From the IMG/VR virus record IMGVR_UViG_2660238363_000004: a DNA stretch of 20,000 nucleotides; one strand, 5' to 3'. The notes beneath the pieces are model-generated. The model was not told the DNA's origin. It saw only the letters and a list, made by a program, of their open reading frames with translations, and made no database searches. The stretch's first letter is position 1. Each line of letters opens with the position of its first letter. Both the position numbers and the translations under genes were made by a program. Source of the DNA: an uncultured virus (IMG/VR IMGVR_UViG_2660238363_000004) (lineage: Duplodnaviria > Heunggongvirae > Uroviricota > Caudoviricetes). This document shows positions 3,428 through 20,000 of this stretch, piece by piece.

Positions 3428-3494
3428 ATAAAAACATCGTCTTTTTTATGCAATGATATACCTCGTAAACCGCAATAGACGTTACGAGGTAAAT

Positions 3495-4393: not shown

Positions 4394-4572
4394 TGGCTAA
4401 TTCCACCAGCACACCGTTGCCAAATCACGCATATCACGACGCGCAGGGCCAGACGGTGAGCGTCGTCTCTGTAGCGCACAACCGCGTGACGTTCTATCGC
4501 GAGGGCTACCAGTTCCCTTGCGTACAGACCATTGACCGATTCATGAAGGAGTACGTGGAGGTGAAACAATGA
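4393..4572 (+). CDS. DUF4222-like small protein (59 aa)
   Basis: My translation: MANSTSTPLPNHAYHDAQGQTVSVVSVAHNRVTFYREGYQFPCVQTIDRFMKEYVEVKQ. TAATG and ATGA overlaps with both neighbours; below the ORF-track cutoff. Confidence 0.8.
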   Translation: MANSTSTPLPNHAYHDAQGQTVSVVSVAHNRVTFYREGYQFPCVQTIDRFMKEYVEVKQ

Positions 4573-5306
4573 TTACTAGTATCCAAGGTAATAGCCTCTC
4601 TATGGCTGGCCTGTTAGCAAATGTTAGCACTTTGCGAGTGCTGCGAAGCCACGGGAATCTGTCGAAACCTGTCACTTTGCGGGTCACTGAAGGTGGTGCG
4701 CAAAATGCCGGGTGGAATTTCTGGAATAGGAATAGCGATTCCTTTAACACCTGCAGTAAAAATTTTTGCGAGTCCATAAAAAATGGCTTGATGTTCTACG
4801 TCATCCAGGTCTATGGTTATTGTGCACCAGCAAAATCTGGTGCCGGGATTGGCGTCTCGGAGAGTTTACAGGCGACCTATGACGCGCCATGCGTCTTTTT
4901 TTGTGTCGTTAATTCAGTACACCCTTTTTTCTGCGTTGCGGGTATAATCCGCGTCGCTCACAAAATAATGGTGGGCTGGATGGGGGCGGAGAAATCCGCG
5001 CCGGTTTCCTGTAACGCCGGTTACGCCAACCCTGTTCAGTCCACCACCAGCGAAATTGGCGTTTCCGGTGGTGGGTTTCAGACCCAGTTACAGGAGGCTG
5101 CCACCATGGCTACTACCCCTACCCCTACCCAAAATCCACAATTTATCTGGATCATCGCTGCTATACGACGTGATAGCCAATTCGTCACTGTAAAAATCTT
5201 CCACGTTACCGCAGTCTCTGAACGCGAAGCCCGTCGCACTTTAGTGCGTGATCATATTTGTTTTTTCGCTGGCCGCATCCGTCTGACGGAGGTGGATCAT
5301 GCGTAA
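4569..5306 (+). CDS. Ash-family / Icd-like host cell division inhibitor ORF; probable internal icd start at ATG 5106
   Basis: APAKSGAGIGV, AP.VFFCV, MVGWMGA..SAPVS..AGYANPVQSTT.EIGVSGGG (Ash-like), then MATTP...SEREARRTL.RDHICFFAGRI (Icd-like). AGGAGG SD precedes the in-frame ATG 5106. Confidence 0.8.
   Translation: MITSIQGNSLSMAGLLANVSTLRVLRSHGNLSKPVTLRVTEGGAQNAGWNFWNRNSDSFNTCSKNFCESIKNGLMFYVIQVYGYCAPAKSGAGIGVSESLQATYDAPCVFFCVVNSVHPFFCVAGIIRVAHKIMVGWMGAEKSAPVSCNAGYANPVQSTTSEIGVSGGGFQTQLQEAATMATTPTPTQNPQFIWIIAAIRRDSQFVTVKIFHVTAVSEREARRTLVRDHICFFAGRIRLTEVDHA
4968..5048 (+). ncRNA. c4/CI-type antisense immunity RNA with flanking target sites
   Basis: Long stem ATGGTGGGCTGGATGGGG...CCCTGTTCAGTCCACCA with inner hairpins. 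Loop ACGCCAA (5023-5029) is complementary to TTGGCGT at 4849-4855 and 5056-5062. A candidate promoter TTGATG..TATGGT lies at ~4788-4817. Confidence 0.7.
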
Positions 5307-5520
5307 TAACTGCCTCCCTACAGCGATCGCCGAGAAGCCTTATCTACTCGATGAACTCACCTACGAAACAGAATGTGTGTTGGCAATCCTAAGAACAATT
5401 AATGATGTCAGCGATCCACACACCAAAAGCCACCTCGTAGACTCCGCCGAACTTATTGGTACTCAGTTGTTGAAAAAGCTAGAGCACAACGCACGTCTGG
5501 AAGATGGTGATTGCGAATGA
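5299..5520 (+). CDS. Hypothetical protein (73 aa)
   Basis: GGAGG SD; overlaps the upstream icd stop and the downstream primase start (ATGA 5517-5520). Confidence 0.7.
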   Translation: MRNNCLPTAIAEKPYLLDELTYETECVLAILRTINDVSDPHTKSHLVDSAELIGTQLLKKLEHNARLEDGDCE

Positions 5521-8273
5521 AAAATATCGACCTCATCCGTGAAGTTACCCAAGCTGCAGCAGATCGCTGGCCTACGGTTCTGGCTGGGCTGCATATCGAT
5601 GTGCCTGATTCACCGCGTCGGCACGGCCCGTGCCCGGCCTGCGGCGGTTCGGATCGCTTTCGTTTCGATGATGGTGGCCGTGGCAGCTTTATCTGTAACC
5701 AATGCGGCGCCGGTGATGGTCTTGACCTAATCAGAAAGGTGAACAAATGTGATACCACGGAGGCCGCCAGACTGGCGGCGGAGGTTCTGGGTATTGATTA
5801 CCGGGTAGATGAACGCAACGAGGAAGCCGTCCGCCAGCGCCGGGAGCAGATGGAGGCTGAACGCCAGCAAAGGGAGCAGGTTCGCCAGCAGAAGGCATCA
5901 GAGGAAGCTGAGCAGCGCCAGTCTGTGTTTGTGGGCCACTGGCAGAGGCTCACAAATGCGGCCGCATCCGGAGAAAGCCAATACCTGACAGGGAAAGAAC
6001 TAAGCGGATTCACGTTCCCGATCCTGGCGGACGGCAGCTTGCTGCTGTCGCTGGTGGACGATACCGGCACAGTAACAGCTGCGCAGACCATTACACCACA
6101 GGGTGAAAAACGTCTTCTGACCGGCTCGGCGAAGCGAGGTGCATACCATGCTGTAAACGTAGCAGACGCACCGCAGAGTGTTTTAATTGCTGAAGGGCTG
6201 GCAACAGCCTTATCTGTCCATCTGATACGCCCGGAAGCACTGACGGTATGCGCCATAGACGCTGGCAACCTGCAGCCCGTCGCCCAGGCCATGCATCAGC
6301 GTTACCCGAATGCGCAGATCATCATTGCTGCCGACAACGATATTAAGCCCGGAGAGCCAAATACAGGCAAAGACGCTGCGGAGAAAGCTGCAAAGGCCGT
6401 CTCTGGATGGGTGGCTTTACCACCAACGGTGGAAAAGGCCGACTGGAACGACTACCACCAGCAGCATGGCCTAGAAGCCGCTACAACGGCGTTTAAGAAT
6501 TCGATGTATCAACCGCAGGAGCCTGAAGTGTCCGCGAAACTGCAAGTGATCAACGGAGGGAAGAAGGGCGCATCAAAACCTGAATCCCTGCGACCTCATG
6601 TCGAAAGCCGTGTTGACGGTGTTTATTGGGTTGAGCCCAAATCAGACAAAGATACCGGGGAAATCATCAGCCGTGAAAGCTGGTTGTGCTCTGCTCTGGA
6701 GGTTGTCGGTATTGGCATTGATGACAGTAAAACCCGGTATTTGATCCTGCGCTGGCAGGCATTAGGTTCGAAGGGGGACACCGTCCAGGCGATACCACTT
6801 GCTGATATCGGTGAGCGTGAGGGATGGCGAACGCTCAAGTCGGGTGGGGTAAACGTCACAACCAAAAGCGGTTTACGTGCAACGCTAGCCGACTGGCTGC
6901 AGAGCTGTGCCAATGGAGAGGTATGGCGCATTGCGCATGCTACGGGCTGGCAGTGTGGCGCCTATATCATGCCCGATGGTGAGATCATAGGTACGCCAGA
7001 ACAACCTGTGCTGTTTAACGGGCGGAGTTCTGCCGCGTCCGGATACAGCACCAGCGGTACTGTTGAGAGCTGGCGGGAGAGTGTAGGGCGTCTGGCCTTT
7101 GGCAACTATTCGATGATGACTGGCGTGTCCGCAGCGCTGGCAGCTCCTTTGATTGGCCTTGCTGGTGCGGATGGATTCGGTATCCACCTCTACGAACAGT
7201 CGAGTGCCGGTAAGACCACCACAGCGAATGTAGCCTCCAGTCTTTACGGCAACCCGGATATGCTACGTCTCACTTGGTACGGCACTGCGCTGGGACTGGC
7301 GAATGAAGCTGCCGCACACAACGACGCGCTGATGCCGCTAGACGAAATCGGCCAAGGCGCTGATCCGGTGGAGGTCTACAAATCTGCCTACGCGCTATTT
7401 AATGGTACGGGTAAGCTGCAGGGTGCGAAGGAGGGAGGGAATCGTGATCTGAAGCGCTGGCGTACTGTGGCCATCAGTACCGGTGAGATGGATCTGGAAA
7501 CATTCATCGCCAGTGCCGGCCGTAAGGCTAAAGCGGGCCAGCTGGTTCGCCTGCTGAATGTTCCGATGCGTCGGGCAGTACGCTTCCATGAGCATGCCAA
7601 TGGTAAACACCACGCCGATGCCCTCAAAGATGCGTACCAGCATCACCACGGAGTAGCCGGGCGTGAGTGGGTGAAATGGCTAGCTGACCACCAGCAAGAG
7701 GCGGTAAGTGCTGTCAGGGCAGCGGAAGAGCGCTGGCGTAGCCTGATCCCATCGGATTACGGGGAGCAGGTCCATCGTGTCGGTGCCCGGTTTGCCATTC
7801 TGGAAGCCGCACTATTGTTAGGTAAAGTGATCACCGGCTGGGATGAGCAGACGTGTCGGGATGCTATTCAGTACAGCTATAACGCCTGGCTGCGTGAATT
7901 TGGGACCGGAAACAAAGAACATCAGCAGATTATCGATCAGACCGAGGCATTCCTGAACGCCTACGGCATGAGCCGTTTTGCGCCGTTTCCTTATGACCCA
8001 TCCAGTCTGCCAATATCCAACATGGCGGGATACCGGCAGAAAGGTGGTCACGAGTCTGACCCAATGGTGTTCTACACCTTCCCCGCAGCCTTCGAAGGGG
8101 AGATTGCCCGCGGCTTTAATGCTCGTCAGTTTGCCGAAGTACTGAAGAAAGCTGGCATGCTAACGCCTCCGACGTCAGGCCGGGGGTTCCAGAGAAAGTC
8201 ACCACGCATTGATGGGCGACAGATTCGGGTTTATGTCCTGCAGTATTTGCCGGACGATGACCAATCAGAGTAA
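5517..8273 (+). CDS. Primase-helicase replication initiator (P4-alpha-type Zn ribbon + TOPRIM + DUF927 helicase)
   Basis: CPACGGSDRFRFDD...CNQC zinc ribbon; IAEGLATA and IAADND TOPRIM motifs; DWND; Walker A-like YEQSSAGKTT and Walker B LMPLDE. Confidence 0.93.
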   Translation: MKNIDLIREVTQAAADRWPTVLAGLHIDVPDSPRRHGPCPACGGSDRFRFDDGGRGSFICNQCGAGDGLDLIRKVNKCDTTEAARLAAEVLGIDYRVDERNEEAVRQRREQMEAERQQREQVRQQKASEEAEQRQSVFVGHWQRLTNAAASGESQYLTGKELSGFTFPILADGSLLLSLVDDTGTVTAAQTITPQGEKRLLTGSAKRGAYHAVNVADAPQSVLIAEGLATALSVHLIRPEALTVCAIDAGNLQPVAQAMHQRYPNAQIIIAADNDIKPGEPNTGKDAAEKAAKAVSGWVALPPTVEKADWNDYHQQHGLEAATTAFKNSMYQPQEPEVSAKLQVINGGKKGASKPESLRPHVESRVDGVYWVEPKSDKDTGEIISRESWLCSALEVVGIGIDDSKTRYLILRWQALGSKGDTVQAIPLADIGEREGWRTLKSGGVNVTTKSGLRATLADWLQSCANGEVWRIAHATGWQCGAYIMPDGEIIGTPEQPVLFNGRSSAASGYSTSGTVESWRESVGRLAFGNYSMMTGVSAALAAPLIGLAGADGFGIHLYEQSSAGKTTTANVASSLYGNPDMLRLTWYGTALGLANEAAAHNDALMPLDEIGQGADPVEVYKSAYALFNGTGKLQGAKEGGNRDLKRWRTVAISTGEMDLETFIASAGRKAKAGQLVRLLNVPMRRAVRFHEHANGKHHADALKDAYQHHHGVAGREWVKWLADHQQEAVSAVRAAEERWRSLIPSDYGEQVHRVGARFAILEAALLLGKVITGWDEQTCRDAIQYSYNAWLREFGTGNKEHQQIIDQTEAFLNAYGMSRFAPFPYDPSSLPISNMAGYRQKGGHESDPMVFYTFPAAFEGEIARGFNARQFAEVLKKAGMLTPPTSGRGFQRKSPRIDGRQIRVYVLQYLPDDDQSE

Positions 8274-8454: not shown

Positions 8455-8898
8455 ATGACAGCTCAAATTTCAGCGTATGGCCGGCTGGTGGCCGACCCGC
8501 AGACCAGAACAACGGGAAAAGGTACGAACATGGCTATGGCCCGCCTAGCGGTAGCTCTGCCCTGTAATGCGGCAGATAACGGAGAGGCTACTTTCTGGTT
8601 GGGCGTGATTGCTTTTGGTAAACAGGCCGATGCGTTGGCCAAACATCGTAAAGGCGACCTTGTCAGTGTGGCGGGCAATATGCAGCTCAATCAGTGGACG
8701 GGTCAGGATGGCGGTATACAGCAAGGCTATCAGGTCATTGCGGACAGTGTACTCAGCGCCAGAACGGTACGACCAGGAGGTAAAGCAGGGCAGCAGGGTC
8801 AAGCTACGGATGCTCTGCGCCGTGCCCATGAGCAACAACCGCCCGCGACCGGGTATGAAGGATTCAACCAGACTCCGCCGTATGAAGATGATTTTTGA
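8455..8898 (+). CDS. ssb: Single-stranded DNA-binding protein
   Basis: OB-fold motifs (GRLVADP, AFGKQA, KGDLVSVAG) and an acidic C-terminal tail YEDDF. Confidence 0.92.
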   Translation: MTAQISAYGRLVADPQTRTTGKGTNMAMARLAVALPCNAADNGEATFWLGVIAFGKQADALAKHRKGDLVSVAGNMQLNQWTGQDGGIQQGYQVIADSVLSARTVRPGGKAGQQGQATDALRRAHEQQPPATGYEGFNQTPPYEDDF

Positions 8899-8947: not shown

Positions 8948-9820
8948 TCAGGCTGCTATTTTAATAATTCTTTGAGCGGCTTCGAATGCACTGTTTACAG
9001 GAATGAAATTAATATCTTCCTTTAAGGCTAACTCGGTGAGTTCATTAACATAACCACGCATGCTTGCAACGGTTTTAGGTGGGATCGTTGGATCGTCGAA
9101 TGAAGGAATACCGACGATAACGTCAAGAGTCTTTGGCTTTAAAACCATACTGGAGCGAGAAAGTGATTCTAAATCATACACTTTTGCTTTAATAGAGTTA
9201 ATCGATGCCGATAAACGACTAGGTACCATTAACCCAAAATTAGACGCATAGATATCATTATAAAACCCAAAGCGCGTGTGCAACTGCGCACTTGATAGCT
9301 GGACTCGGGTACCAAAATAATCTGAAAGCTTCGGGTTTAGCTTTCTGGCTTCGTCAGATATTCTGGTTGACCATTGCTCAGACTGCTTCTGACTAGATCT
9401 GTCATCATCTTCTAAGCGTTCTGCCTCAAGGGTTAAAGTACCTAGGCTCGCTGTTAGCCTGACAGCCTGCCTTAAGATCCCTGATAAGCTATCGTCGAGA
9501 GCGTCTGAATTTTTTGAAATTGCGAAACCAGAAATCGGTGGAGCCCAATGTTCTAAGTTAATGTGGGATTCTAGGTGAGAATGGAGAGAGCTTCTCACCC
9601 AAGATACCATTGATTTGATTGATTCTGATTTGGTCCCGTAGATTGAATCGAGAACCTCATCTCTGATGGACTGTATGATTTCATGCTTACCATCAACTCC
9701 CCGAGCCACAATGATTGCATTAATTCGTTCGCCTGAACCGATGATGGGCTCAAAGGACACTGACCACCACTTACCTGCGTAGGTTGGTTTAGCTGGGAAC
9801 AGTGAGATGTCAAATGTCAT
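8948..9820 (-). CDS. Uncharacterised partner of the HipA-like kinase (290 aa; N-terminus reminiscent of DUF3037-like partners)
   Basis: ATG 9820 overlaps the kinase stop (ATGA). The N-terminal F.EP..GSGERIN.IIV motif resembles that of partner proteins of HipA_2 kinases. Confidence 0.7.
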   Translation of the reverse strand: MTFDISLFPAKPTYAGKWWSVSFEPIIGSGERINAIIVARGVDGKHEIIQSIRDEVLDSIYGTKSESIKSMVSWVRSSLHSHLESHINLEHWAPPISGFAISKNSDALDDSLSGILRQAVRLTASLGTLTLEAERLEDDDRSSQKQSEQWSTRISDEARKLNPKLSDYFGTRVQLSSAQLHTRFGFYNDIYASNFGLMVPSRLSASINSIKAKVYDLESLSRSSMVLKPKTLDVIVGIPSFDDPTIPPKTVASMRGYVNELTELALKEDINFIPVNSAFEAAQRIIKIAA

Positions 9821-10578
9821 TGAAACATGTCCGTTTGAGAGATGCATAGCCTAGATCTTATCAGAGTCTCGATTGATGACAATCTCTCGGTTAGAAAAGC
9901 TAAAATTTGAGCGATCACCGCATCGGGAACATACATTGTTGCCTGAGCGCTAGACATTACATCTTCCAAATTTAAAGCTCGATACATGGGGGTAATCATC
10001 TGTGAGGCGGTTCGTAAATCGCGGAATTTTTCTAATTCGGATTTGAATGAGAATAGAGCTCTCAAGATATTGTTATCGATTGCCGGTTCGCTAGCAGGCA
10101 GCCCTTCTGGGAGCGCGAGCCCATGGTCAATGAATAAAAAATCATCACATCCATCATAAAGAATGTTACCAACATTTCTGTCATGATTGGCAATCCATTC
10201 ATCGAAAACGCCAACATCTAGGGATGCTTTAAAATTCTGTAGTTTTTCGTATGCTTGACTGCAATCGGCGTACCGCCGAAAACTAGGATAATCCGCATCT
10301 TCAGAACCATACATCAGTGCATGCTGCCCTGGTGGGATAACATCCAACGTAGTGTTATCTGCGAGAACGAGGAAGGGCTTAGGAATTGGTATTCCTAGCT
10401 CTCTACCAAGAATAGCGCAGAATGCTTCCACGCAAATTTCCCGGGGATCAATGATCTTCGCAAACACTACAACCGTATTCGTTGCTGTTCTGACATGGGC
10501 TTTCCACGTCTGGTTTATGTTGCTATCACTAAACAATGTAGCCCCGGGTAAGAGGGTTGCTATCTCAATATTGTCCAT
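9817..10578 (-). CDS. HipA-like (HipA_2/PI3K-like) protein kinase
   Basis: VFAK lysine; E.F...LG..LG.PIP; catalytic loop FDEWIANHDRNVGNIL; Mg-binding IDHG. Confidence 0.88.
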   Translation of the reverse strand: MDNIEIATLLPGATLFSDSNINQTWKAHVRTATNTVVVFAKIIDPREICVEAFCAILGRELGIPIPKPFLVLADNTTLDVIPPGQHALMYGSEDADYPSFRRYADCSQAYEKLQNFKASLDVGVFDEWIANHDRNVGNILYDGCDDFLFIDHGLALPEGLPASEPAIDNNILRALFSFKSELEKFRDLRTASQMITPMYRALNLEDVMSSAQATMYVPDAVIAQILAFLTERLSSIETLIRSRLCISQTDMFQ

Positions 10579-10836
10579 ATCTAAGCCAAGATTTCCTACA
10601 GTACCCCTGAGAATATACAGAATACTCCCCTAGACATATCCTGATAAATGATCAGTGATTCATAATCAATCCGTCTGTAGTGATTTACTGATTTTGGCTA
10701 CTCGTACCGAGGTTGTATGCTCAGCTTGGAACAAAACCTAGTCGTTCTGTTCATGCTGTTGGCCATCACTGCGTGGCAGTTTCAACGCTACATGTAAAAT
10801 CAAAAGCCTCATCAAAATGCCCATATTTTATTTATA

Positions 10837-10924
10837 GGCAGAAACGGTGTGTTCTGGCTATGTATGGCAGGAATGGTGTGTCCTGCCTATCTATGGGCAG
10901 GTTTGACATGTTCTGGCTATGTAT
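10837..10924. repeat. Three imperfect 29-30 bp tandem repeats with internal inverted repeats
   Basis: GGCAGAAACGGTGTGTTCTGGCTATGTAT / GGCAGGAATGGTGTGTCCTGCCTATCTATG / GGCAGGTTTGACATGTTCTGGCTATGTAT. Confidence 0.8.
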
Positions 10925-10953
10925 AGACACATCAGGGTTGATATCTCTTAGTG

Positions 10954-11697: not shown

Positions 11698-11865
11698 ATG
11701 TCAAAACAGTCCGTCAAACCTGTCTTGCTCAGCGAGGCACAAATTCAGGCAATCAGAAAAATTCAGGAAAAGCAGCGCCAGCAATCAGGTATCGGCGTTG
11801 CGCCAACTATCCATGAAATCGCAAGGGGGCTGGTGGACAAAGCCTTGCAACAGCATTTGGGCTAA
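11698..11865 (+). CDS. Small ribbon-helix-helix-like satellite protein (55 aa)
   Basis: My translation: MSKQSVKPVLLSEAQIQAIRKIQEKQRQQSGIGVAPTIHEIARGLVDKALQQHLG. Strong AGGAGGT SD; not in the ORF track. Confidence 0.75.
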   Translation: MSKQSVKPVLLSEAQIQAIRKIQEKQRQQSGIGVAPTIHEIARGLVDKALQQHLG

Positions 11866-11953
11866 AGGCTCTAACTTGTTGATACAAAGCAAAATAACTA
11901 ACTGCTTATTATTCATGCAGATGTTAAGTGTTTTAGGGTTAATAAAGGTAACT

Positions 11954-12139
11954 ATGAAAGCGTATATCCCTGACGAAGATTTGCTTCAGCAAGTTCAGGC
12001 ACTGGCTGATAAATTGCCACCTGAAGAGCGACTGCTCATTTTAGAGTTACTTCAGCGTTACAGCACTGTCTACAACGTTGCTCAATCATTCATCCCGGAT
12101 TATCCATGCGGTGTTTTGGACGCGTTATCCAAAAATTAA
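11954..12139 (+). CDS. Hypothetical helical protein (61 aa)
   Basis: AAGGT SD before ATG 11954; MKAYIPDEDLLQQVQALADKLPPEERLLILELLQRY...; ends 20 nt before the ejection gene. Confidence 0.6.
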   Translation: MKAYIPDEDLLQQVQALADKLPPEERLLILELLQRYSTVYNVAQSFIPDYPCGVLDALSKN

Positions 12140-12159
12140 GACCATAGGGAGTGCTTGTT

Positions 12160-14853
12160 ATGCCAATAGTACCAACTGTACAAGGTCGCCAAGTTGAAAG
12201 CCGCGGCGTGCAGACCGGAGGGTTTCAGGCCGTCGCTCAGCCAAATATTGGAGATGCCATTCTTGGTGCTGGAGAGCAGGCCTTGAATGTATTTGGCGAG
12301 GCTAAACAAAAGGCTAATGTTGCCATGGCGCAAAATGCGTCACTTAAGCTAAGCCAGACCGAAGAGGAGTTAAAAACTCAGTTGTATGGACTGCAAGGAC
12401 AGAATGCCTTAGGGAAAGGGCATGAGTTCACTCAAAAATATAATGAGCAAGTTCAGACATTATCTGACTCTCTTCCTGATGACGCCTCCAGACAAATGTT
12501 TTTGCAGCAAGCAAGATTGCAGCAGGTTCAATTCCAAGGAAATGTTAACAGATATGAGATAGGTCAAATAAACTCTTTTGAAAATGATCAAGTAAGTGCA
12601 ACCAGGAAGTTACAAATACAAAAAGAAGCTGATGCATGGGATAACCCGCAGGAAGCCGCGTTAGCTAAAAATATAAGAACAGTTTCAATTGCAAGATATG
12701 GTGCAGCCCGCGGATGGTCGCAGGAGCAAATGCTTGCAGAAATAGAAAAAGATAACCAAGAGGCGACAGAATTACGGGCGAAAAACTATGCTGTAGCAAA
12801 TCCAATTGGCTGGCTGGGCGGGAATTTTTCATCAGAAGATACTGGCGAATTAGATATGCGCGCCGTTGGACTGGTGGAATCTGGTGGCAAACACCGCAAT
12901 GCTGACGGCAGTCTTGTAACGTCTCCAGCTGGAGCCCAGGGGGAATTTCAGTTGATGCCGGATACTGGGAAAGAACTGGCAGCTAAGCGTGGATTGGAAT
13001 ACAACCCGGAAGATCCGGAGCAGCATGCGCAGCTTGCGCGAGACTATGCTGGGCAACTCAGTAAAAAATATCAGTCTGAAACGTTGGCTGGCGCAGCATA
13101 CAACTGGGGGATGGGTAACGTCGATAAACTGATCTCTAAAATTGGGGACCCACGTAAGGGCGATATCAGTATTGAGGATTTTGTAAAGCAATTACCGTCA
13201 GAAACTCAAGGGTGGTTATCAAGGTACAAAAAAAATACGACTGGCATGGACCCATTATCAATATATAAAATTGATAATATTGCACATTCTCAAATCGAGA
13301 AACAAAGGAGTCTTGTCCTAAAAGAACTTGAACCTACTTATAATAACACAATGGCCCAACTTAATAATGGTGAGGTCCCGGATTCTATCCCATCAATACC
13401 ATCGATAATGTTTGGCTTTGGAGAGCAGGGCAAAAAAATGGTAACTCAGCTTGATATTGCTATGGATAATGCCAAAACTTTTCAGGCAATCCAATACCTG
13501 CCTCCGACAGAGCAAAAAGCGGAACTTGAGAAGGTAAAACCTCAGGTTAATGACCCGGATTACGCATTAAAGTTTGATGCGTATGGAAAACTAAATGCAT
13601 TAGTCGCCAGATCCAATGAGGCGATTCAGTCCATGAAGGACTCCAATCGTTTTAATGAGGCTTTAGCAATTGGCGAAAAGCTTGATCCAAGCAATAAATC
13701 TATGCAGAAAGCTGCTGACAACACTCCATCTGCGCTTAATTTCCGCATTAATGATGCTAATACCCATGACGCGATCGTGCAGCAGGTAAACCAGACTGGC
13801 ATTATTCCTACTCAAGTTACCTCTCAGCTGAATGCCATCTCCCGTTCAAGTAGTCCTGAAGTAGTCAAACAGGGAGCTAATCTGTTTAATTCTCTGTACG
13901 AAACAGATCCTGCCTCTGTGGGTGACATGCCTAAGGATATGCAGAGTTTTTACCTGACTGTAAAGCAACTTACCGATTCCGGAATGGCGTCAGACGAAGC
14001 GGTGAAGCAGGCGCAGAACGTTACTTATAACCAGTCTGACGCTCTGAAATTACAATTGTCTTCTACGCAGAGTACGAAGGAATACAAAAAAGAACGTGCC
14101 AGCGCGATGGATTCCGCTGTCAGTAGCATGAAGCCTTGGTACAGCTTTGGCGGGCCAGTCGCAGATGACCAGAATGTAAACGCCGTCAATTTCCGCAATG
14201 ACTACCAGTCACTTTATGACATCAATTATCGTAACTCGGGCGGTAATGCTGATGTTGCCAAAAAGATGACCAATACCCAGATCGCCCGTACCTGGAGTCT
14301 CAGTGATGTGAATGGCAGCGCTCAGTTTATGAAATACGCACCTGAGGCGCTCTATAACTATGGGCCATCTGGTTGGCAGGCTGCGCAGTGGAAAGAAGAA
14401 AAAGAGCGCCTGACCTATGGAGAGCGTGAAGGCAAAATTGAAACCAGCCCGACTCAACTGGGAATCACATCAGGCTCTGCGCCAGTTATTAAGTCTAATA
14501 CCCCAGAGTCCAGAATAGGTGGTGAACTGGAAATCACCCCTGATGTTCTAACCACGCATAATGGTGATTACGCCATTATGGTTAGGATGAAAGATAAAGA
14601 TGGCATTGAGAGCGTACAGCCTTATTACGATAAATATGGCCGACCTATGCGCTGGAAACCGTCGCTGGAGGATTGGAAGCCATATCAGGATATGCAAAAA
14701 GAAAGCGAGATAAAAGGCCAGCAAGAGATTATTCGAGGCCAGGAAATTAGAAATTTCAAAGATAAGCATCGGGCTATGGATGAGCAATATCGTAAATTCC
14801 ATAACGATCGTATTAATCGGTTTAAAAACTATTTTTCATGGGATGCCGAATAA
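12160..14853 (+). CDS. Podophage-type internal virion / DNA ejection protein with soluble lytic transglycosylase domain (897 aa)
   Basis: SLT motifs VESGG (catalytic Glu ~12877), GAQGEFQLMP, AAYNWG and PSET at ~12850-13230. The N-terminus MPIVPTVQGRQVESRGVQ resembles, from recall, epsilon15/phiV10-like internal proteins. The rest is Q/A-rich helical sequence. Confidence 0.8.
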   Translation: MPIVPTVQGRQVESRGVQTGGFQAVAQPNIGDAILGAGEQALNVFGEAKQKANVAMAQNASLKLSQTEEELKTQLYGLQGQNALGKGHEFTQKYNEQVQTLSDSLPDDASRQMFLQQARLQQVQFQGNVNRYEIGQINSFENDQVSATRKLQIQKEADAWDNPQEAALAKNIRTVSIARYGAARGWSQEQMLAEIEKDNQEATELRAKNYAVANPIGWLGGNFSSEDTGELDMRAVGLVESGGKHRNADGSLVTSPAGAQGEFQLMPDTGKELAAKRGLEYNPEDPEQHAQLARDYAGQLSKKYQSETLAGAAYNWGMGNVDKLISKIGDPRKGDISIEDFVKQLPSETQGWLSRYKKNTTGMDPLSIYKIDNIAHSQIEKQRSLVLKELEPTYNNTMAQLNNGEVPDSIPSIPSIMFGFGEQGKKMVTQLDIAMDNAKTFQAIQYLPPTEQKAELEKVKPQVNDPDYALKFDAYGKLNALVARSNEAIQSMKDSNRFNEALAIGEKLDPSNKSMQKAADNTPSALNFRINDANTHDAIVQQVNQTGIIPTQVTSQLNAISRSSSPEVVKQGANLFNSLYETDPASVGDMPKDMQSFYLTVKQLTDSGMASDEAVKQAQNVTYNQSDALKLQLSSTQSTKEYKKERASAMDSAVSSMKPWYSFGGPVADDQNVNAVNFRNDYQSLYDINYRNSGGNADVAKKMTNTQIARTWSLSDVNGSAQFMKYAPEALYNYGPSGWQAAQWKEEKERLTYGEREGKIETSPTQLGITSGSAPVIKSNTPESRIGGELEITPDVLTTHNGDYAIMVRMKDKDGIESVQPYYDKYGRPMRWKPSLEDWKPYQDMQKESEIKGQQEIIRGQEIRNFKDKHRAMDEQYRKFHNDRINRFKNYFSWDAE

Positions 14854-17732
14854 TGCCTATCTATCCGCAATCTGATGTTCCGCCGAGCATAATGGATAAT
14901 GCCCTTCAGGCTCCAGCTGGTTTTGATGTATCGCTACCAGAAGGAACTAACCCGGAGCCACAGCAGAAACAACCTTCTGTATGGAATGCTGCTTTTCGTC
15001 AGAATAACCTGCTGGCTGGAATGTTTCGTCCGGCAAAGCAATTCGAACCGGCGGAGGGGTATAACCCTTATTCTGATAAAAACGAACTCAAGGGTTATGA
15101 GCAGTGGGGGACAGCTTTTGCTGATTCTCGATCCCCAGAGGAAACCGCCTGGATTAAAAACCAGATAGACGATGAAAACGAAGACCGCCGGGTGCTGTCT
15201 GAAGCAGGCCCTGAAGGAACTTTAGCCAGTATAGCCGCCGGGGTTATTGACCCCGTCACAGTCGCATCGATGTTTATCCCAGGTGCGCAGGGAAGCCTGG
15301 CCGCTCGTATCGGTTCGCAGGTTGCTATTGGAGCCGCTGGTACCGCGCTTAGCGAGGTAGCGCTCAATAACGAGCAGTACACCAGAACAGCCAGGGAGAG
15401 CGCCGCGCACATTACAGCCGGCGCACTTCTCAGCGGTCTCTTTGCAAGTGCTGGCTCGTTGATATCCCCCGGAGTCAGGTCCGCAGCCACACGTGAAATG
15501 GCCGATGCACTTGAAAATATAGGTACGGCTAACGCTATTAACCGTGGCATGGATAGCCTACCGGATGGCGGAAGCGTGGGCGCTATGCGGATAAGACAGG
15601 CAACCCTTGACGATCTCACTATTGACGGAGGAAAGGCAGCAGATATTGCTTTGAAAGCTGGCGGGTACATGACGCCTATATCACGTGTTATATCGTCGCC
15701 GTCACGCAACGCGCGGATCACGGCACTGGAACTAGCGGAAAATAACTTTGCGCTGCGCGGTAATCAACGCGGGTTCGAGACTCCTGTAGCTGCTGAAACC
15801 CGTGTACGCGGCTGGCGGAGGGAGGAGGCGGCGGTAGTGGTCACTAATAAGCAGGCGTATGCCAAATATAAAGCTGATGGCGGAGATCTCAATTACACCA
15901 GATTCCGCGAGGAAGTTGGAGACGCCATGCGAAATGGTGACATTCACGGTAATGCCGCCGTTCAGGATGCTGCGCGTGCATTGCGTCAGGTGGTCGATAG
16001 GGTAAAAGTCGCTCAGCAGGATCTTGGTTTACTACCACCTGATGCAGAGCTAAAAGCGTTGGGTCAGACCAGTTACTTCCCCCGAGTCTATAGAGTGGGG
16101 AAAATTGTTGAGGAACGCGATAAATTCCGTGATCTTTTAGTTAACTGGTGGTCGCGTGGCGCTTCGGCTATGTCGCGTGAAGATGCAGAGATCGCTGCAG
16201 ACGCAACGATAAATAAAATTGTTGGTGCAAAAATACCCCAGGATTTTATGAATGTTTTTACCGTCAAGGTACCAGGCAGCTCTCGTCAGCGCACTTTAAA
16301 TCTTCCGGATAATATGATGCGAGACTATCTGGAGAGTGACGCGAACTATGTGTTGCAGCGGCATATCAGGGAGGCTTCACCGGATATCGAATTAACCCGC
16401 GTTTTTGGAAACCGCAACCTTGAGCCCCAACTTAAGGCGATACAGGATGAATATGACGAACTGATGCGAGCCCGCCCACAGGAGCAGGCCAAACTAGCTA
16501 AAGCACGTGAGAATGACATTCGGGATATCACTGCTATGCGTGATCGTTTAGTTGGTACGTACGGAATGCCTGATGATCCATCATCCTTTTTCGTACGCGC
16601 TGGCCGGGCTATGCGTAACGTAAACTTCGTTACCAAACTCGGCGGCATGACGGTTTCTGCTATTCCCGATCTCGCTCGCGGAGTGATGGTCAACGGGTTC
16701 AGTAAAACCATGAAGGGTTATGGTGCGTTAATTTCCAAATCACCGGCATTCGCTGCTAACAAAAGCGAAATGAAAAAGATGGGGATTATGGTTGAAACGG
16801 TGCTTAACTCACGCTCGAGGTTGATGGCTGATCTGGTTGACAGTTCTACGCGCACGAACGCGGCTGAAGCTGGGCTGGATCGCGTTACTGATGTGTTCGG
16901 AAAGCTTACGCTGATGGGGCAATATAACGACATCAACAAAGCGATTAATGGGATGGTGACTGCAGATAGTATTCTGTCTGGTGCGGCTCCGGCTTCCAGG
17001 ATTGCGAAGCTGGGTATCAGTCCGTCTACATCCGCGCGCATAAACGAACAGTTTCGTAAGTATGGAGAGGTGCTTGATGGTTGGCACATCGGTAATTTTG
17101 ACAAATGGGATGATGATTATGCCGCAGGCGTGTTTCAGTCGGCTGTTATGAAGGACACAAACAACATCATTATCACGCCGGGGGTAGGGGATACGCCATT
17201 GTGGGCCAGTTCTCCAATTGGGCGTACGGTATTCCAGTTTCGCTCTTTTACGACTGCATCATATAACCGTGCAACAATTGGTGGTTTATCAGAAGGGACC
17301 GCGCAGTTTTACTACGGTACGGCCTTTCAAATTGCGCTTGGGGCACTCACGTATGCGCTTAAACAGGCTGCGAATGGTAAAGAGATCGACTGGTCGCCGC
17401 AAAAACTGGCACTCGAGGGGATTGACCGCTCCGGTTTCCTTGGCCCGCTGATGGAATATAACAATATGGCGGAGAAGGCAACTGGCGGGGCTTTGGGACT
17501 GGGCTCATTGCTCGGTACGGGTACGCAATCCCGTTATGCCAGCCGAGGCTTTGTAGGCTCTGTAATAGGGCCTACATTCGGCCTTCTGGATACCGTTACA
17601 GATGTGACCGCCGGCGTGCTGAATGGCGATGCAGGCGACCGCGTTCTGCACAGTGTGCGTACACTGCTACCTGGTAATAACTTGTTCTGGATCGCACCGT
17701 TGATAAATCAGGTTGATCCTGGTATGCGCTAA
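14853..17732 (+). CDS. Large internal virion / DNA ejection protein (T7 gp16-like class, 959 aa)
   Basis: TAATG coupling to the upstream gene. It has an N-terminal Gly/Ala-rich hydrophobic segment (GTLASIAAGVIDPVT...), YFPRVY, LGGMTVSAIPD and GRTVFQFRSF motifs, and Gly-rich hydrophobic C-terminal helices typical of podophage core proteins. Confidence 0.75.
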   Translation: MPIYPQSDVPPSIMDNALQAPAGFDVSLPEGTNPEPQQKQPSVWNAAFRQNNLLAGMFRPAKQFEPAEGYNPYSDKNELKGYEQWGTAFADSRSPEETAWIKNQIDDENEDRRVLSEAGPEGTLASIAAGVIDPVTVASMFIPGAQGSLAARIGSQVAIGAAGTALSEVALNNEQYTRTARESAAHITAGALLSGLFASAGSLISPGVRSAATREMADALENIGTANAINRGMDSLPDGGSVGAMRIRQATLDDLTIDGGKAADIALKAGGYMTPISRVISSPSRNARITALELAENNFALRGNQRGFETPVAAETRVRGWRREEAAVVVTNKQAYAKYKADGGDLNYTRFREEVGDAMRNGDIHGNAAVQDAARALRQVVDRVKVAQQDLGLLPPDAELKALGQTSYFPRVYRVGKIVEERDKFRDLLVNWWSRGASAMSREDAEIAADATINKIVGAKIPQDFMNVFTVKVPGSSRQRTLNLPDNMMRDYLESDANYVLQRHIREASPDIELTRVFGNRNLEPQLKAIQDEYDELMRARPQEQAKLAKARENDIRDITAMRDRLVGTYGMPDDPSSFFVRAGRAMRNVNFVTKLGGMTVSAIPDLARGVMVNGFSKTMKGYGALISKSPAFAANKSEMKKMGIMVETVLNSRSRLMADLVDSSTRTNAAEAGLDRVTDVFGKLTLMGQYNDINKAINGMVTADSILSGAAPASRIAKLGISPSTSARINEQFRKYGEVLDGWHIGNFDKWDDDYAAGVFQSAVMKDTNNIIITPGVGDTPLWASSPIGRTVFQFRSFTTASYNRATIGGLSEGTAQFYYGTAFQIALGALTYALKQAANGKEIDWSPQKLALEGIDRSGFLGPLMEYNNMAEKATGGALGLGSLLGTGTQSRYASRGFVGSVIGPTFGLLDTVTDVTAGVLNGDAGDRVLHSVRTLLPGNNLFWIAPLINQVDPGMR

Positions 17733-18160
17733 TCACAATCAGCTTTACTAACATTGAATGAGAGGAATGTTATGTCATTTACTGAGACGAAATGATAATG
17801 CAGAGTAACATTCCTTTGACTTAGAGTATCGAAAAACGGATCGCCATTACCAAATGGAGAACAATATTTTTTCACAATCATGTTTTTTGTAGCAACATTT
17901 TGAACACTATCTGGAAGGTGAGATTCGTTTTTAGGTCTTGTAGTATCTATAGCACCTACCTTAACTAAAACAACGATGTCATCATTCGTAGCGGAGATGC
18001 TTTTTATGCTTAAGCTTTTTTCCACATTGGCAGGAACGCCATCTAACGATGGCGTTAATGATTTTGCCATGATGCTTTCGGTTGGTATCTCGTATCGCGC
18101 ATCACCAGCAAATACTAAAGTTGGTAAAGCTAACACTATACAGCATAGTATCGAACGCAT
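17729..18160 (-). CDS. Secreted/periplasmic protein (143 aa) with signal peptide and probable disulfide
   Basis: Sec signal MRSILCCIVLALPTLVFA|GD; mature Cys in KKYCSP and the terminal ADCD; AT-rich; convergent 4-nt overlap with the ejection gene stop. Confidence 0.75.
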   Translation of the reverse strand: MRSILCCIVLALPTLVFAGDARYEIPTESIMAKSLTPSLDGVPANVEKSLSIKSISATNDDIVVLVKVGAIDTTRPKNESHLPDSVQNVATKNMIVKKYCSPFGNGDPFFDTLSQRNVTLHYHFVSVNDITFLSFNVSKADCD

Positions 18161-18227
18161 CTGTAACTTCCGTTATGTCATTGGTGTTGTAAAAATGATT
18201 ACTAGTTCAGTAGTGTGACATGTCACG

Positions 18228-18246
18228 AAAGCCGCTGCGGCGGCCT
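18228..18246 (-). terminator. Probable intrinsic terminator after the toxin gene
   Basis: GCCGC-TGCG-GCGGC hairpin (18231-18244) followed by a short TTT on the minus strand, adjacent to the toxin stop at 18246. Confidence 0.5.
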
Positions 18247-18653
18247 TAAATGCAGTATGCCCTATAGAATTTTAATATCTTCGGATTAGTGAAATCGGAT
18301 GTTTCAAAACCATCCAATACTCGTTGAAGTATGAATTCTTCCATATCCGCGTGGGGAGTAAGTTCTCCGCTTTGCTCGCGTGATATCATGTTTGGCACTT
18401 TCCATACGATAGCATCTTCGTAAAAAACGTAGCTGTCATGGAAGACAAAAGGGTGTTCTCCTGCATGAAGAATACATGCAGGATCACAGTAAGCTGGTGG
18501 GGGATAAACAGAAGAAATGTTCACTACCAGAACACAGTCGCAACCATGTATCGGGTAGTGAACCGGATCATTACAAATGATATGTAAATGATCACTGCCG
18601 CAAACAGGCGCTAAGACAGTTCCTTTCCTGTAAGGGGCATAATGTTGCGTCAT
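18246..18653 (-). CDS. Putative PemK/MazF-fold toxin (PanT partner), 135 aa
   Basis: KGTVL...HLHII......VLVVNISS...CIL.AGEHPFV.HDSYV pattern of PemK-like beta-barrels; ATGA overlap with the Panacea gene. Confidence 0.6.
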   Translation of the reverse strand: MTQHYAPYRKGTVLAPVCGSDHLHIICNDPVHYPIHGCDCVLVVNISSVYPPPAYCDPACILHAGEHPFVFHDSYVFYEDAIVWKVPNMISREQSGELTPHADMEEFILQRVLDGFETSDFTNPKILKFYRAYCI

Positions 18654-19219
18654 GCAAGTTGCCTGCTGAACTGTTTCAGTGCATCTCTTTCACGCATATG
18701 GCGAATTAATTCATCAGCTTCTGATTCACTTTTTCCCCCAGCCATAAGAATATCTTTAGGGCTGATTGGAACTGATGAGCCATGCGGATTTTGCCATTCA
18801 GCACATACTCGATGAGTCAGGTCACAAAGCTCAAATCGTTTGTACCGGCCATATTCATCAAATACTTTGTCAAGAATGCGTTTGTTTGCCTTGCTGAGCT
18901 CATCGAATGCGTCATCGTCATCAAGTCCGTTAACTCGTTTCTTCAATGACACTTCAAAATCTGCCTCACCAGCAATCCAGTCATCCCAAGGTGATTCTTC
19001 CTCCGGGCTTCCTGATTTCAGCAAGTCATATGTTCTTGACAGAACAGGTCCATTATTCATGGATACGGCACGATCACCAGTCATGGAGTCGCCGTAAGTG
19101 ATCATGTATTCCCTGTCAGCAAGATACAGCAACTTCATGAGCTTGATGTATGCCATGCGTCCACCACGTTTAAGCAGCAGATAGCCAGCCATTTGCGCAG
19201 TTTTGCTTTCGCTATACAT
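18650..19219 (-). CDS. Panacea domain (DUF4065/SocA/GepA) antitoxin
   Basis: IKLMKLLYLADR....YG...TGD..V.M.NGPV...YD and L.DLTH...EW motifs; GGAGG SD before ATG 19219. Confidence 0.88.
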   Translation of the reverse strand: MYSESKTAQMAGYLLLKRGGRMAYIKLMKLLYLADREYMITYGDSMTGDRAVSMNNGPVLSRTYDLLKSGSPEEESPWDDWIAGEADFEVSLKKRVNGLDDDDAFDELSKANKRILDKVFDEYGRYKRFELCDLTHRVCAEWQNPHGSSVPISPKDILMAGGKSESEADELIRHMRERDALKQFSRQLA

Positions 19220-19364
19220 ACTCAACCTCCAGAGTAAACAAGATGTTTACCGTGTAGCTAGCTTACTCAAATTTGATGAGTTAAGCAAAGTGAATAGATA
19301 TAAAAAGAAGCGAACACATAGAACATCTAACCAAACTAAGAAGCGAATACCTGCGCCAGCAACC

Positions 19365-19750
19365 TCAGTAACCCTTGGCCTTAGCTATCACGTACTGAGC
19401 GTGCGTCTCGATTTCTCGCAGCGCTTGCTGACGCCAGCTATGTAGCAGAACATAGTCGTTAACTCCGCAGCGGCGCCGGCAACATTATGCCCGTCGGCAT
19501 CCATCTTTTTCAGCATATCCATCAGCATGGAGTGTTCAACCGGACCGTTCACTCCCTCAGGACTATGGATGTGCTCACGGTAGTTCGTCTTCAGAGGGTA
19601 GTGATAGGTCTGCTTCTCTTCCGACTTTATGGTCTCAAGGGTGGCTGGCATCAAACTGGCTACTACCTTCTGCGTTATATCCGCCGGCGAGAGCTCCTGG
19701 CGAACGTATCGCCCGGTGCAGAGGATTTGCGTAAGCAATGTGCCAACTGT
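19365..19750 (-). pseudogene. C-terminal remnant of a Bro-N-type phage antirepressor (5'-truncated, frameshifted)
   Basis: Begins ...LTQILCTGRYV, a degenerate version of the LP.IRKTGRY end of Bro-N. After ~19420 the alternative frame reads LREIETHAQYVIAKAKGY* (TGA 19365-19367), which I recall as the natural C-terminus of such proteins. Confidence 0.55.
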
Positions 19751-19751: not shown

Positions 19752-20000
19752 TCACGTTGCCTTACTTACCGGGCGAGAAACTCTCTTGTCAACAGGTGGC
19801 TTTTTCCCACCAAAATTACCGGTGTTTGCGGCCTTTCTTTCGTCAAGCCACTGTTCGACTTCATCTCCATCCCAGGCACAGCGTCCGTCGGTAATATAAA
19901 AGCGTTTTGGGAACTGACCTTTGTGTTCAAGGCGGTCGATAGTACTCATCGATAACGGCACCACCAGCAACAACTCTTTCCTACCAAAAGCTTTTTTCAT
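19752..20000 (-). CDS. AlpA-like phage excisionase/regulator (82 aa)
   Basis: KELLLVVPLSMSTIDRLEHKGQFPKRFYITDGRCAWDGDEVEQWLDER shows the AlpA winged-helix pattern; the subtype resembles, from recall, the xis of epsilon15-like prophages. Confidence 0.8.
   Translation of the reverse strand: MKKAFGRKELLLVVPLSMSTIDRLEHKGQFPKRFYITDGRCAWDGDEVEQWLDERKAANTGNFGGKKPPVDKRVSRPVSKAT

Follow-up and report, generated by a model that had tools for sequence, protein, structure and literature searches.

The window analysed here is a 20,000-nt stretch of DNA, read on one strand, from an uncultured virus of the class Caudoviricetes (IMG/VR record IMGVR_UViG_2660238363_000004). Our subject is the late operon at window positions 11698-17732, which ends with two large genes for podophage-type ejection proteins, and the phage satellite that contains this operon. 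From a six-frame listing, 25 open reading frames (ORFs) of the window were scanned against Pfam and PHROGs, and RNAs were searched against Rfam. Four genes form the late operon:

11698..11865, + strand: 55-aa protein at the operon head; ATG at 11698 with a good ribosome-binding site
11954..12139, + strand: 61-aa protein; ATG at 11954 is the most likely start
12160..14853, + strand: SLT-domain internal virion (ejection) protein, 897 aa (900 aa with a GTG start at 12151)
14853..17732, + strand: second internal virion (ejection) protein, 959 aa (964 aa with a start at 14838); phrog_342, phrog_16310

Both large ORFs are open and intact, and the ATG of the second overlaps the stop codon of the first as TAATG, indicating translational coupling. 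The SLT protein matches phrog_1044 over its full length (residues 4-899 of 900) and the Pfam SLT domain at residues 242-331 (E=1.8e-9). Its ES, G-x-FQ-LM and AYNWG motifs are intact in an alignment with the homologues from phages and from a diverged satellite described below (G366), with the Glu at about residue 240; we take ES, FQ-LM and AYNWG to be motifs of lytic transglycosylases. The match of the second protein to phrog_342, annotated as 'internal virion protein', also covers its full length. A place in virions and ejection into the envelope are presumed for both proteins from PHROG names and from how the phage records are annotated. A sequence search of the PDB with both large proteins returned no match at E 0.01 or better, and the AlphaFold2 (AF2) model of the 959-aa protein, based on a 21-row alignment, had a mean pLDDT of 36.4, too low for a fold search. 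An earlier, first-pass annotation of this DNA had described two small ORFs followed by two intact, coupled large virion proteins, one of them with an SLT domain, and had seen no capsid, terminase or tail genes. This description holds, with the starts slightly corrected to the ATGs at 11698, 11954, 12160 and 14853, and none of the 25 ORFs matched a capsid, portal, terminase or tail family in Pfam or PHROGs. The comparisons reported here firmly indicate that the only virion genes of the satellite, which looks complete, are those for a podophage's two large ejection proteins, placed in the standard cargo slot of the satellite family.

The 55-aa protein that heads the operon has 37 distinct homologues among the 80 satellite loci examined below, with a conserved VKPVLLS...IGVAPTIHEIARGL core, and no match in 50,697 phage records. 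Its AF2 model (pLDDT 89.9) comprises an extended N-terminus and two helices. All Foldseek matches of this model in the pdb set had E>2, the best of them being the ribbon-helix-helix domain of PutA, and a Pfam scan of 20 aligned homologues gave nothing meaningful. The model suggests that the protein is likely a ribbon-helix-helix-like regulator at the head of the late operon. Homologues of the 61-aa protein (39-95% identity) are confined to G001, the nearest relative of the window, and to L115, L116, L191-193 and G366, all of which carry cargo of the epsilon15/TL type; no phage, Pfam, PHROG or PADLOC match was found for it. In satellites with tape measure cargo, its place is occupied by a coupled 108-aa protein (phrog_19131), likewise with no informative Pfam, PHROG or PADLOC match. 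A 113-aa ORF considered as a T7 gp14-like candidate was rejected, as the gp14-family protein of L114, used as a tblastn probe on the 80 satellite loci, a set that contains neither the window nor G366, found no match; the 113-aa frame is broken in G366, and its C-terminal ~61-77 aa alone are conserved. A promoter and terminator scan of 10600-20000 gave fewer sites than shuffled sequences, with none upstream of the late operon. Two RNA runs (X15 and X16) from a strain of organism A yielded contigs, at a depth of ~110-119, that are ~95% identical to 17508-18226 and to patches within 15454-17508. The 3' region of the cassette may be transcribed in a related element; DNA carry-over could also explain these contigs.

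Upstream of the late operon lies the satellite core. The first-pass annotation had placed a complete replication and integration core at 1111-8898, and integrase, AlpA, Bro-N, DUF4222, Ash, primase and SSB genes were all recovered there with Pfam and PHROGs:

1111..2325, + strand: tyrosine integrase, 404 aa, with arm-binding, central and catalytic domains (PF13356, PF22022, PF00589; E ~1e-28 to 1e-30)
2386..2454, + strand: int-alpA RNA motif (RF02996, 43 bits against a gathering score of 35.8)
3453..3695, + strand: AlpA-family regulator/excisionase (PF05930, E=1.6e-17)
3791..5520, + strand: Bro zone with Bro-N, DUF4222, Ash-family and 73-aa ORFs (Pfam, PHROGs)
4824..4901: isrK RNA, embedded in the Bro zone (RF01394, 72.8 bits)
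4964..5051: C4 RNA, embedded in the Bro zone (RF01695, 78.7 bits)
5511..8273, + strand: Zn-ribbon/Toprim/DUF927 primase, 920 aa (PF08273, PF13362, PF06048; phrog_1139, E=6e-178)
8455..8898, + strand: SSB, 147 aa (PF00436)
10829..10924: iterons, three ~30-nt direct repeats, in a region conserved across the satellite family

For phage-inducible chromosomal islands (PICIs) of Gram-negative bacteria, a four-zone layout has been defined, the last zone of which is dynamic and is proposed to take up late genes from helpers (Tommasini, Mageeney, Williams 2023, PMC10111431). The integration, Bro, replication and late zones described there each have a counterpart in the window, in the form of int-AlpA, a Bro zone with C4 and isrK, primase-SSB and the late operon, and the damaged tRNA fragment at the right attachment site (attR) is a further likeness. 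In the integration zone, int and alpA are both on the + strand, the inward-facing int being followed by alpA as in PICIs. By comparison with the same study, the iterons are the probable origin of the satellite. The first-pass annotation had counted both an antirepressor and the immunity genes among decayed neighbours of the late operon. The antirepressor is indeed reduced to a C-terminal Bro-N part; the immunity RNAs isrK and C4 both score above their Rfam gathering thresholds, which contradicts the other half of that claim. The element resembles P4 in its integrase at a tRNA, its AlpA-like gene, its C4/isrK-type RNA immunity and its alpha-like primase. The defining features of P4 are sid, psu and delta. 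No homologue of Sid, Psu or Delta, and no capsid-size, polarity-suppression or head family, was found among the 25 window ORFs with Pfam and PHROGs; moreover, P4 remodels the capsid and, unlike the element described here, carries no ejection or tail proteins. Judged by its sequence, window 898-20000 is most of a satellite integrated at tRNA-Arg, of the Gram-negative PICI type and with P4-like RNA immunity.

Borders and mobility of the island

The nearest record, G001, is an IMG/VR provirus of 23,162 nt rated 55% complete. It is 98-98.5% identical to window 8922-20000 and 72-95% identical to the core, in which some segments are unrelated. The following features delimit the island in the window:

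898..944, + strand: left attachment site (attL), the 3' ~45 nt of tRNA-Arg(TCT), aligned to G001 1238-1282, within the ARAGORN tRNA-Arg at 1206-1282
1058..1077, + strand: 20-nt arm-type repeat TGGGGGTACATTTGGGGGTA, found once in the window against 0 expected
19752..20000, - strand: second AlpA-like gene (alpA2), 82 aa, at the right end and the window edge (PF05930, E=6e-6)

The 16-nt att core TCGAATCCTGTAGGGC at 923-938 is present in a single copy in the window, even with up to 3 mismatches allowed. As the first-pass annotation had stated, no copy was found between ssb and the cassette at 12160; hence, there is no att site between them, and attR lies outside the window, ~550 nt past its end. 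In G001, a whole tRNA-Arg, the 16-nt direct repeat and paired 20-nt arm repeats flank everything from int through alpA2, ~20.1 kb in all. The copies of TGGGGGTACATTTGGGGGTA at 1396-1415 and 21268-21287 of G001 are set inwards of attL by ~135 nt and of attR by ~75 nt, the placement expected of arm sites, suggesting that the repeat is an arm site of the integrase or AlpA. The attR core of G001 is located at 21344-21359, and the bases beyond it do not rebuild the tRNA end, which fits the attR 'damage' reported for PICIs (PMC10111431). Between alpA2 and this core, G001 has no ORF of at least 60 aa, and hence no structural operon before attR; in this relative, the expectation of the first-pass annotation was thus borne out. 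Three unannotated ORFs of 62-140 aa follow beyond attR at the right end of G001.

In a 33-kb contig from DNA run X5, the tRNA 5' half precedes the island and the second copy of the 20-mer lies 472 nt past the position of the window end, which gives an island of ~19.6 kb. The tRNA 5' half continues leftward in the contigs of X5, X11, X15 and X16, and G001 and the X5 and X11 contigs have an intact tRNA directly before the island. In the window, unrelated DNA with a phrog_3893 ORF and a fragment of a UmuD-like S24 peptidase stands at 1-897 in place of the tRNA 5' half; therefore, a second element or a rearrangement abuts attL on the left. This UmuD-like/phrog_3893 flank resembles E. coli chromosomal and plasmid copies. 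The ejection genes were found inside an att-bounded element, as proposed earlier, in G001, the X5 contig and G366, and reverse alpA2 homologues also end the other epsilon15-type satellites on the right (G366, L191, L193 and L252).

Near-identical copies of the island are widespread. Window 11600-17800, including the satellite-specific small genes, was found at a word share of at least 0.99 in 14 DNA runs from 11 samples and 11 studies, dated 2015-2025 and carrying 3 organism labels; one of these is possibly the source sample. Assemblies of two DNA runs were compared with the window. The X5 contig, which has another organism label, covers 900-20000 with 1 difference. In X11, which has the third label, 6611-10495 is replaced, and the segments on either side (900-6611 and 10495-20000) show no more than 2 differences. 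The occurrence of near-identical islands under 3 organism labels indicates, at the level of sequence, that the satellite is mobile between species.

The comparison of the window with G001 revealed an exchange within the cassette. A module made up of the 61-aa gene and the start of the SLT gene, ~150-300 codons of it (window 11998-12597, G001 12651-13393), differs between the two islands, with 39% amino acid identity in the 61-aa gene and 30% in the first ~150 codons of the SLT gene, while the remaining 5 kb of the cassette, including SLT codons 300-900 and the whole second gene, is identical base for base. The N-terminal module of the window is 49-69% identical to that of TL-2011b and epsilon15-group phages; that of G001 had no match above 34% among the loci examined. 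The N-terminal 150 aa of the SLT protein thus form an exchangeable module.

Origin of the cargo and its counterparts across the satellite family

A megablast search of a phage collection with window 11500-17800 gave no match, and relatives surfaced at the protein level. In tblastn against the 50,697 phage records, the SLT protein matched 179 records, 5 of them with at least 80% query coverage, the best being gp37 of Escherichia phage TL-2011b (66% over 100% of the length). The second protein is 68-76% identical to TL-2011b gp38, which matches at 68% along the entire protein, and to an E. coli prophage homologue, and 94-95% identical to the proteins of the IMG/VR podophages L027 and L096. In TL-2011b and E. 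coli prophages, the pair lies inside the structural operon, after tail genes and small internal virion proteins (in E. coli MB07152, one small protein before the pair is annotated as 'virion core protein, T7 gp14 family'), and precedes a moron region, the tailspike and the lysis genes. When 17 proteins of the phage structural operon were used as probes against the window, only the 4 homologues of the two large genes matched; connector, tail, GNAT, small core, terminase and downstream phage proteins of this set did not. The homology to the structural operon therefore begins at the start of the SLT gene. These matches indicate that the two large proteins were captured from a podophage like TL-2011b or epsilon15.

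The DNA that follows the operon bears further traces of the phage:

within 17729..19738, - strand: 143-aa ORF, in the position of the gene that follows the ejection genes in phages, with 36-38% homologues in L012, L016, L023 and L026
18246..19225, - strand: 135-aa ORF (phrog_19071) and SocA/Panacea-domain protein (191 aa, PF13274), overlapping by 4 nt
19388..19738, - strand: truncated Bro-N antirepressor, 116 aa, aligned with the C-terminal half of phage Bro-N

In phages like TL-2011b, the Bro-N antirepressor lies 2-4 kb downstream. From the homology of the 143-aa and 116-aa products, the captured block extends over ~12160-19738 and ends inside a phage gene. The 135-aa/SocA pair looks like a toxin-antitoxin module; in satellite L140, its homologues are located elsewhere, in the interval from ssb to the origin. 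When the two large proteins themselves served as queries, the matches were mostly phages: the 6 loci from species-representative genomes all proved to be prophages or pieces of them, and of the best 80 of 322 IMG/VR protein relatives, 79 had phage structural neighbours and no satellite genes, G001 alone having satellite genes. A prophage remnant on a Raoultella scottii contig (L012, 10001-12172) encodes residues 241-964 of the second protein at 97% identity, an allele very close to that of the satellite; terL and a tailspike gene follow it, and nothing recognisable lies upstream.

Diverged satellites with similar cargo were also found, so that the linkage is not the one-off fusion which the first-pass annotation had named as a refuting case. 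A search of 401 genomes (family of G002) with window 8900-12200 identified G366, whose satellite genes are 57% (int), 78% (alpA), 70% (primase), 74% (ssb) and 98% (55-aa protein) identical to those of the window. After the same two small genes, G366 encodes an 898-aa SLT protein, 41% identical in its first 365 aa, a 575-aa protein (phrog_3003), an 855-aa protein (phrog_684, annotated as 'virion structural protein') and a 127-aa protein, an epsilon15-type set like that of the E. coli MB07152 prophage; a YafO-like gene and the reverse alpA2 come next. The cassette lies inside an island that extends for 20.3 kb from tRNA-Gly(CCC) to a 16-nt copy of the tRNA 3' end. G367 carries an epsilon15-type set, all three proteins of which are 40-63% identical, and the reverse alpA2; the linkage to epsilon15/TL-type cargo recurs in L115, L116 and L191-193. 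G182 and G282 hold fragments only (o130/o111/alpA2-like).

A scan of IMG/VR with the primase gave 219 relatives, of which the best 80 loci were examined. Cargo was typed by tblastn, by the ORFs after the 55-aa gene, by clustering and by Pfam and PHROG scans of 35 + 68 proteins, which represent 81 of the 156 late-zone clusters; the remainder are mostly singleton ORFs shorter than 200 aa. The 80 loci were classified as follows:

19/80: siphophage tape measure proteins (903-1023 aa)
8/80: P22-type gp7 / gp20 / gp16, 6 of them with a DUF2824 gp14-like gene
7/80: epsilon15-type sets, one in reverse orientation
1/80: TL-2011b type (G001)
2/80: SLT-bearing tape measure, Dit-like protein and baseplate hub
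7/80: Dit and/or hub only
8/80: SLT 'lytic tail protein', hub and gpV-like spike, 4 of them with Sf6-type TerS
4/80: phrog_7694 SLT-like protein and ~200-aa TerS-like protein
6/80: hub-like pair of 337 aa and 238 aa
18/80: none recognised, other content, or too little sequence

DNA-delivery or tail-tip proteins thus follow the 55-aa gene in 62 of the 80 loci. No portal or major-capsid family was found in the scanned late-zone proteins (81/156 clusters). Terminase-type matches were the TerS-like genes of two cargo classes and a 219-aa ORF of phrog_13702 ('terminase large subunit') in L125 and L138, and L128 has a tail-sheath block. In L182, the epsilon15-type set is on the opposite strand, right after the primase. 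A profile search with the 55-aa protein in the 401 species-representative genomes gave 32 places in 30 genomes, the 20-kb contexts of which were typed: 8 tape-measure, 3 Dit/hub, 2 epsilon15-type (G366 and G367), 1 P22-type and 2-3 SLT types, with 5 places having a TerS-like gene only, 2 the 108-aa gene only, and 7 nothing recognised. Across the family, the late-zone slot thus holds the envelope-penetrating DNA-conduit module of the exploited phage type, be it a tape measure, P22 gp7/20/16, an epsilon15-type set or a tail-tip hub and spike. The att bounds are established for G001, X5 and G366. The automated att search of the IMG/VR loci gave credible repeats in L139 (20-mer), L155 (14 nt) and the P22-type L163 (18 nt, a candidate boundary), and a tRNA search in six representative loci found none.

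Selection on the cargo was estimated with the Nei-Gojobori method, using our own script, as the ratio of non-synonymous to synonymous substitution rates (dN/dS):

Window second protein against the nearest phage copies (L027, L096): dS 0.67-0.77, dN/dS 0.04
Window SLT protein against phages: dS saturated, dN/dS 0.06-0.09
G366 against L115/L116, all three proteins, satellite against satellite: dS 0.19-1.0, dN/dS 0.05-0.18
L191 against L192/L193: few differences, dN/dS 0.04-0.47

These ratios agree with the first-pass suggestion, drawn from the open frames, that the genes are kept by selection, and indicate that the cargo is under purifying selection.

A possible role of the cargo in DNA delivery

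Our overall best explanation, to which we give slightly better than even credence, is that the satellite carries its own podophage ejectosome, which substitutes for that of the helper in satellite particles, with the pay-off at DNA delivery. A matching podophage helper would build procapsids, into which the two satellite proteins would be loaded in place of, or beside, the helper's own, and particles with satellite DNA would then inject it via the satellite-specified ejectosome. In short-tailed phages, this would correspond to the chimeric tails, equipped with a satellite-encoded tape measure, that are made by the PLEs, elements that resemble phage-inducible chromosomal islands. Guided by this analogy, we regard substitution of the helper conduit as the most economical mechanism. 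More speculatively, the satellite might in this way escape blocks on helper conduit proteins, imposed by resident-prophage exclusion or by a satellite-made inhibitor, and helper fitness might be lowered at the same time; entry-exclusion escape in helper lysogens, immunity to a satellite-made inhibitor and damage to helper virions are all possible pay-offs. The island of 19.6-20.3 kb, about half of a 40-45-kb helper genome, has no capsid-remodelling genes, which, as a speculation, would be compatible with multimers packaged in full-size heads.

The closest known system is PLE of Vibrio cholerae. PLE11 encodes its own tape measure protein (TMP), chaperone and baseplate hub, which are built into chimeric tails; PLE TMP and BhuB enter virions and are needed for efficient transduction; and the PLE inhibitor Rta blocks the helper tape measure, whereupon the PLE's own TMP is needed (PMC12987554). 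Like the element described here, PLE11/1/4 have few virion genes, among them their own version of DNA-conduit or tail-core proteins of the helper. Unlike it, they belong to an unrelated family, their helper is a lytic myophage and the swapped part belongs to the tail, whereas here the phage type is a temperate podophage and the proteins are capsid-internal. Moreover, the cargo is 66-95% identical to phage homologues here as against ~20% for PLE TMP, no Rta-like inhibitor was identified here, and the findings on PLE are experimental. Putative tmp genes have also been reported in capsid-forming PICIs (cf-PICIs) and PLE-like elements (PMC12987554). The cf-PICIs are likewise PICI-type satellites that encode virion proteins; unlike the window element, which has none of these, they have their own capsid, portal, protease, connectors and terminase. 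The SUSP1 'F5' satellites of E. coli (bioRxiv 10.64898/2026.10.15.759431) match the TMP, Dit and hub cargo classes of the relatives examined here and differ in recombinase and attB, in their lytic helper and in being without podophage ejection proteins; the role of two of the genes is presumed there. Among Gram-negative PICIs, capsid genes are the commonest late cargo according to PMC10111431, the main text of which contains no occurrence of ejection, injection, TMP or tape measure, SLT or transglycosylase, and no remark that a large subfamily carries a DNA-delivery module specifically; its supplementary gene profiles include fis PICIs ending in '...Primase...SLT...'. The premise of the first-pass annotation, that P4, PICIs and cf-PICIs hijack via capsid size, terminase or capsid genes, is outdated as a general view of satellites in the light of PLE chimeric tails (PMC12987554) and PICI late-gene capture (PMC10111431). 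A search of the full-text literature, with most subscription journals outside its coverage, found no report of a satellite with podophage ejection proteins, so that the podophage version is apparently unreported, while satellite tape measures (2026) and PICI late-gene capture (2023) are already published.

The cargo might, however, serve interference or defence and not the satellite's own delivery: variant ejection proteins could spoil the virions of the helper or of other podophages in a dominant-negative manner, or block superinfection. We consider this unlikely as the sole role, and the interference and delivery readings are not mutually exclusive. Satellites commonly interfere with helper assembly, and PLE11 links a TMP of its own to an inhibitor directed at that of the helper (PMC12987554). 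The cargo alleles, at 66-95% amino acid identity to phage homologues, are close enough for co-assembly, the N-terminal module has been swapped between near-identical islands as in arms races, and toxin-antitoxin-like and kinase accessory genes lie nearby. Against this, the relatives keep complete multi-gene sets, including the DUF2824/gp14-like gene in P22-type sets, which fits a working module better than poisoning; gp14 of these sets is presumably a non-virion assembly factor. Purifying selection acts over the whole length of the proteins, and PADLOC gave no convincing defence match among the 10 window proteins scanned, a set made up of the two small late-operon proteins and eight accessory ORFs. 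Another possibility is that the late genes were captured passively, as a recent hitch-hiking fragment of a helper prophage, and represent a stage in PICI capture-and-loss cycles without any satellite role. Late-gene capture is documented for Gram-negative PICIs (PMC10111431), and here a syntenic phage gene and a truncated antirepressor came along in the block, phage copies of the second protein share 94-95% of its residues, and a few relatives have broken cargo. Passive capture should, however, bring capsid, portal, terminase and tail genes equally often. Instead, the cargo falls into at least 9 conduit or tail-tip classes in 62 of 80 loci, with no portal or major-capsid gene in the scanned late-zone proteins (81/156 clusters), though TerS-like genes and the phrog_13702 ORFs of L125/L138 occur. 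That at least 9 unrelated cargo classes are all of the conduit or tail-tip kind is hardly what random capture would produce and speaks for selection acting on this function. The slot and orientation behind a conserved satellite gene are constant, and the ORFs are intact, with dN/dS of 0.05-0.18 between satellites at dS 0.2-1.0. Passive capture is therefore, in our opinion, distinctly improbable.

It could also be that a standard satellite (900-8900) is merely in tandem or fused with an unrelated, degraded podophage prophage, so that the linkage is accidental. The left flank of the window does show tandem or rearranged elements at tRNA-Arg, identity to G001 differs between the core (79-95%) and the right half (98.5%), and there is a second alpA in opposite orientation. 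This would nevertheless leave unexplained that no att core lies between ssb and the cassette, and that in G001 and the X5 contig the full 20 kb is enclosed by att and arm repeats, as is likewise the island of G366 at a different tRNA. Moreover, the stretch from ssb to the cassette contains origin-like iterons and the family-conserved 55-aa gene, a reverse alpA2 is also found on the right border of G366, L191, L193 and L252, and the whole unit moves between organism labels. We regard an accidental junction as very improbable.

Several observations also weigh against a role in delivery. The captured block extends past the ejection genes into the truncated antirepressor, as passive capture of a larger piece predicts. 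No TerS, cos or pac site was identified for the satellite, and the 855-aa protein is encoded only once in the genome of G366, so that a search there revealed no resident helper prophage recognisable by a homologue of it. Cargo was not recognised in 18/80 IMG/VR loci and in at least 7/32 genome places, and it is broken in L156 (a gp20 fragment beside a transposase) and L158 (gp16 split into two 325-aa ORFs). In the dN/dS comparisons with phages, change on the phage branch and change on the satellite branch are not distinguishable, and the evident recombination with phages could mimic constraint; the pair of the window and G001, identical over most of the cassette, is uninformative on selection. 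Finally, the RNA runs contain just 90-95% relatives, as contigs.

If the satellite does bring its own ejectosome, 'bring your own injection device' could be a rule across a large family of enterobacterial satellites: for every helper type (siphophage, P22-like, epsilon15-like, TL-2011b-like or hub/spike-bearing), only the module for envelope crossing and DNA conduction would be kept, and it would decide entry into helper-carrying or entry-blocked cells. The satellite's ejectosome or tape measure would then be a device for reaching helper lysogens, and the small co-varying upstream proteins (61 aa, 108 aa) would act as adaptors or inhibitors that bias loading towards the satellite's copy. We put this generalisation forward tentatively, as one that may well not hold. 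Satellite biology has centred on capsid size and packaging, and a tape-measure swap was shown only in 2026, for PLE (PMC12987554). The results described here would extend the conduit-swap strategy to short-tailed phages, in which the swapped parts are capsid-internal ejection proteins, and to a common enterobacterial satellite family (marker in 30/401 genomes) that would systematically carry the DNA-conduit module of its helper. They point to DNA entry, and not to tail building as such, as the step under selection. Superinfection exclusion, helper specificity and interspecies satellite spread become directly testable. There may also be a detection gap. PICIs are typically without other structural genes, and SatelliteFinder uses 'forbidden' components (PMC10085698); finders that forbid structural genes may miss such elements, which catalogues list as partial proviruses.

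Accessory genes and repeats

Two further features lie between ssb and the late operon:

8948..10578, - strand: accessory pair of a 299-aa phrog_21150 protein and a HipA_2-like kinase of 253 aa (Pfam, PHROGs)
after the iterons and before the late operon, - strand: 111-aa ORF (ORF listing)

The region of the accessory pair is variable, as run X11 has other sequence in place of 6611-10495 and a further ORF of 322 aa is present in G001, and it looks like a variable cargo spot, possibly for defence genes. In PADLOC, the HipA_2-like kinase gave a weak match to PDC-M66A (E=5e-7) and the 111-aa ORF a weak match to Csx1 (E=8e-4). No convincing defence family was found among the 10 window proteins scanned, which were the two small late-operon proteins and eight accessory ORFs.

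Two groups of repeats were observed besides the att and arm sites. A 29-nt stretch in the gap between the primase and ssb genes (8301-8329) recurs inverted, at 97%, at G001 21097-21125 (- strand), ~220 nt before attR, and the contigs of X5 and X11 contain this inverted repeat too; a terminator, a packaging site or a recombination site are possible roles. Past the right end of the window, G001 (L010 8990-9130) has three direct AAATGTTGGTTCA-like words and inverted GAACCAAC copies upstream of the reverse alpA2, which may constitute a packaging site, an operator or a second origin. L171, a satellite with unrelated cargo, has a similar cluster of TGTTGGTTCA / GAACCAAC at its right end.

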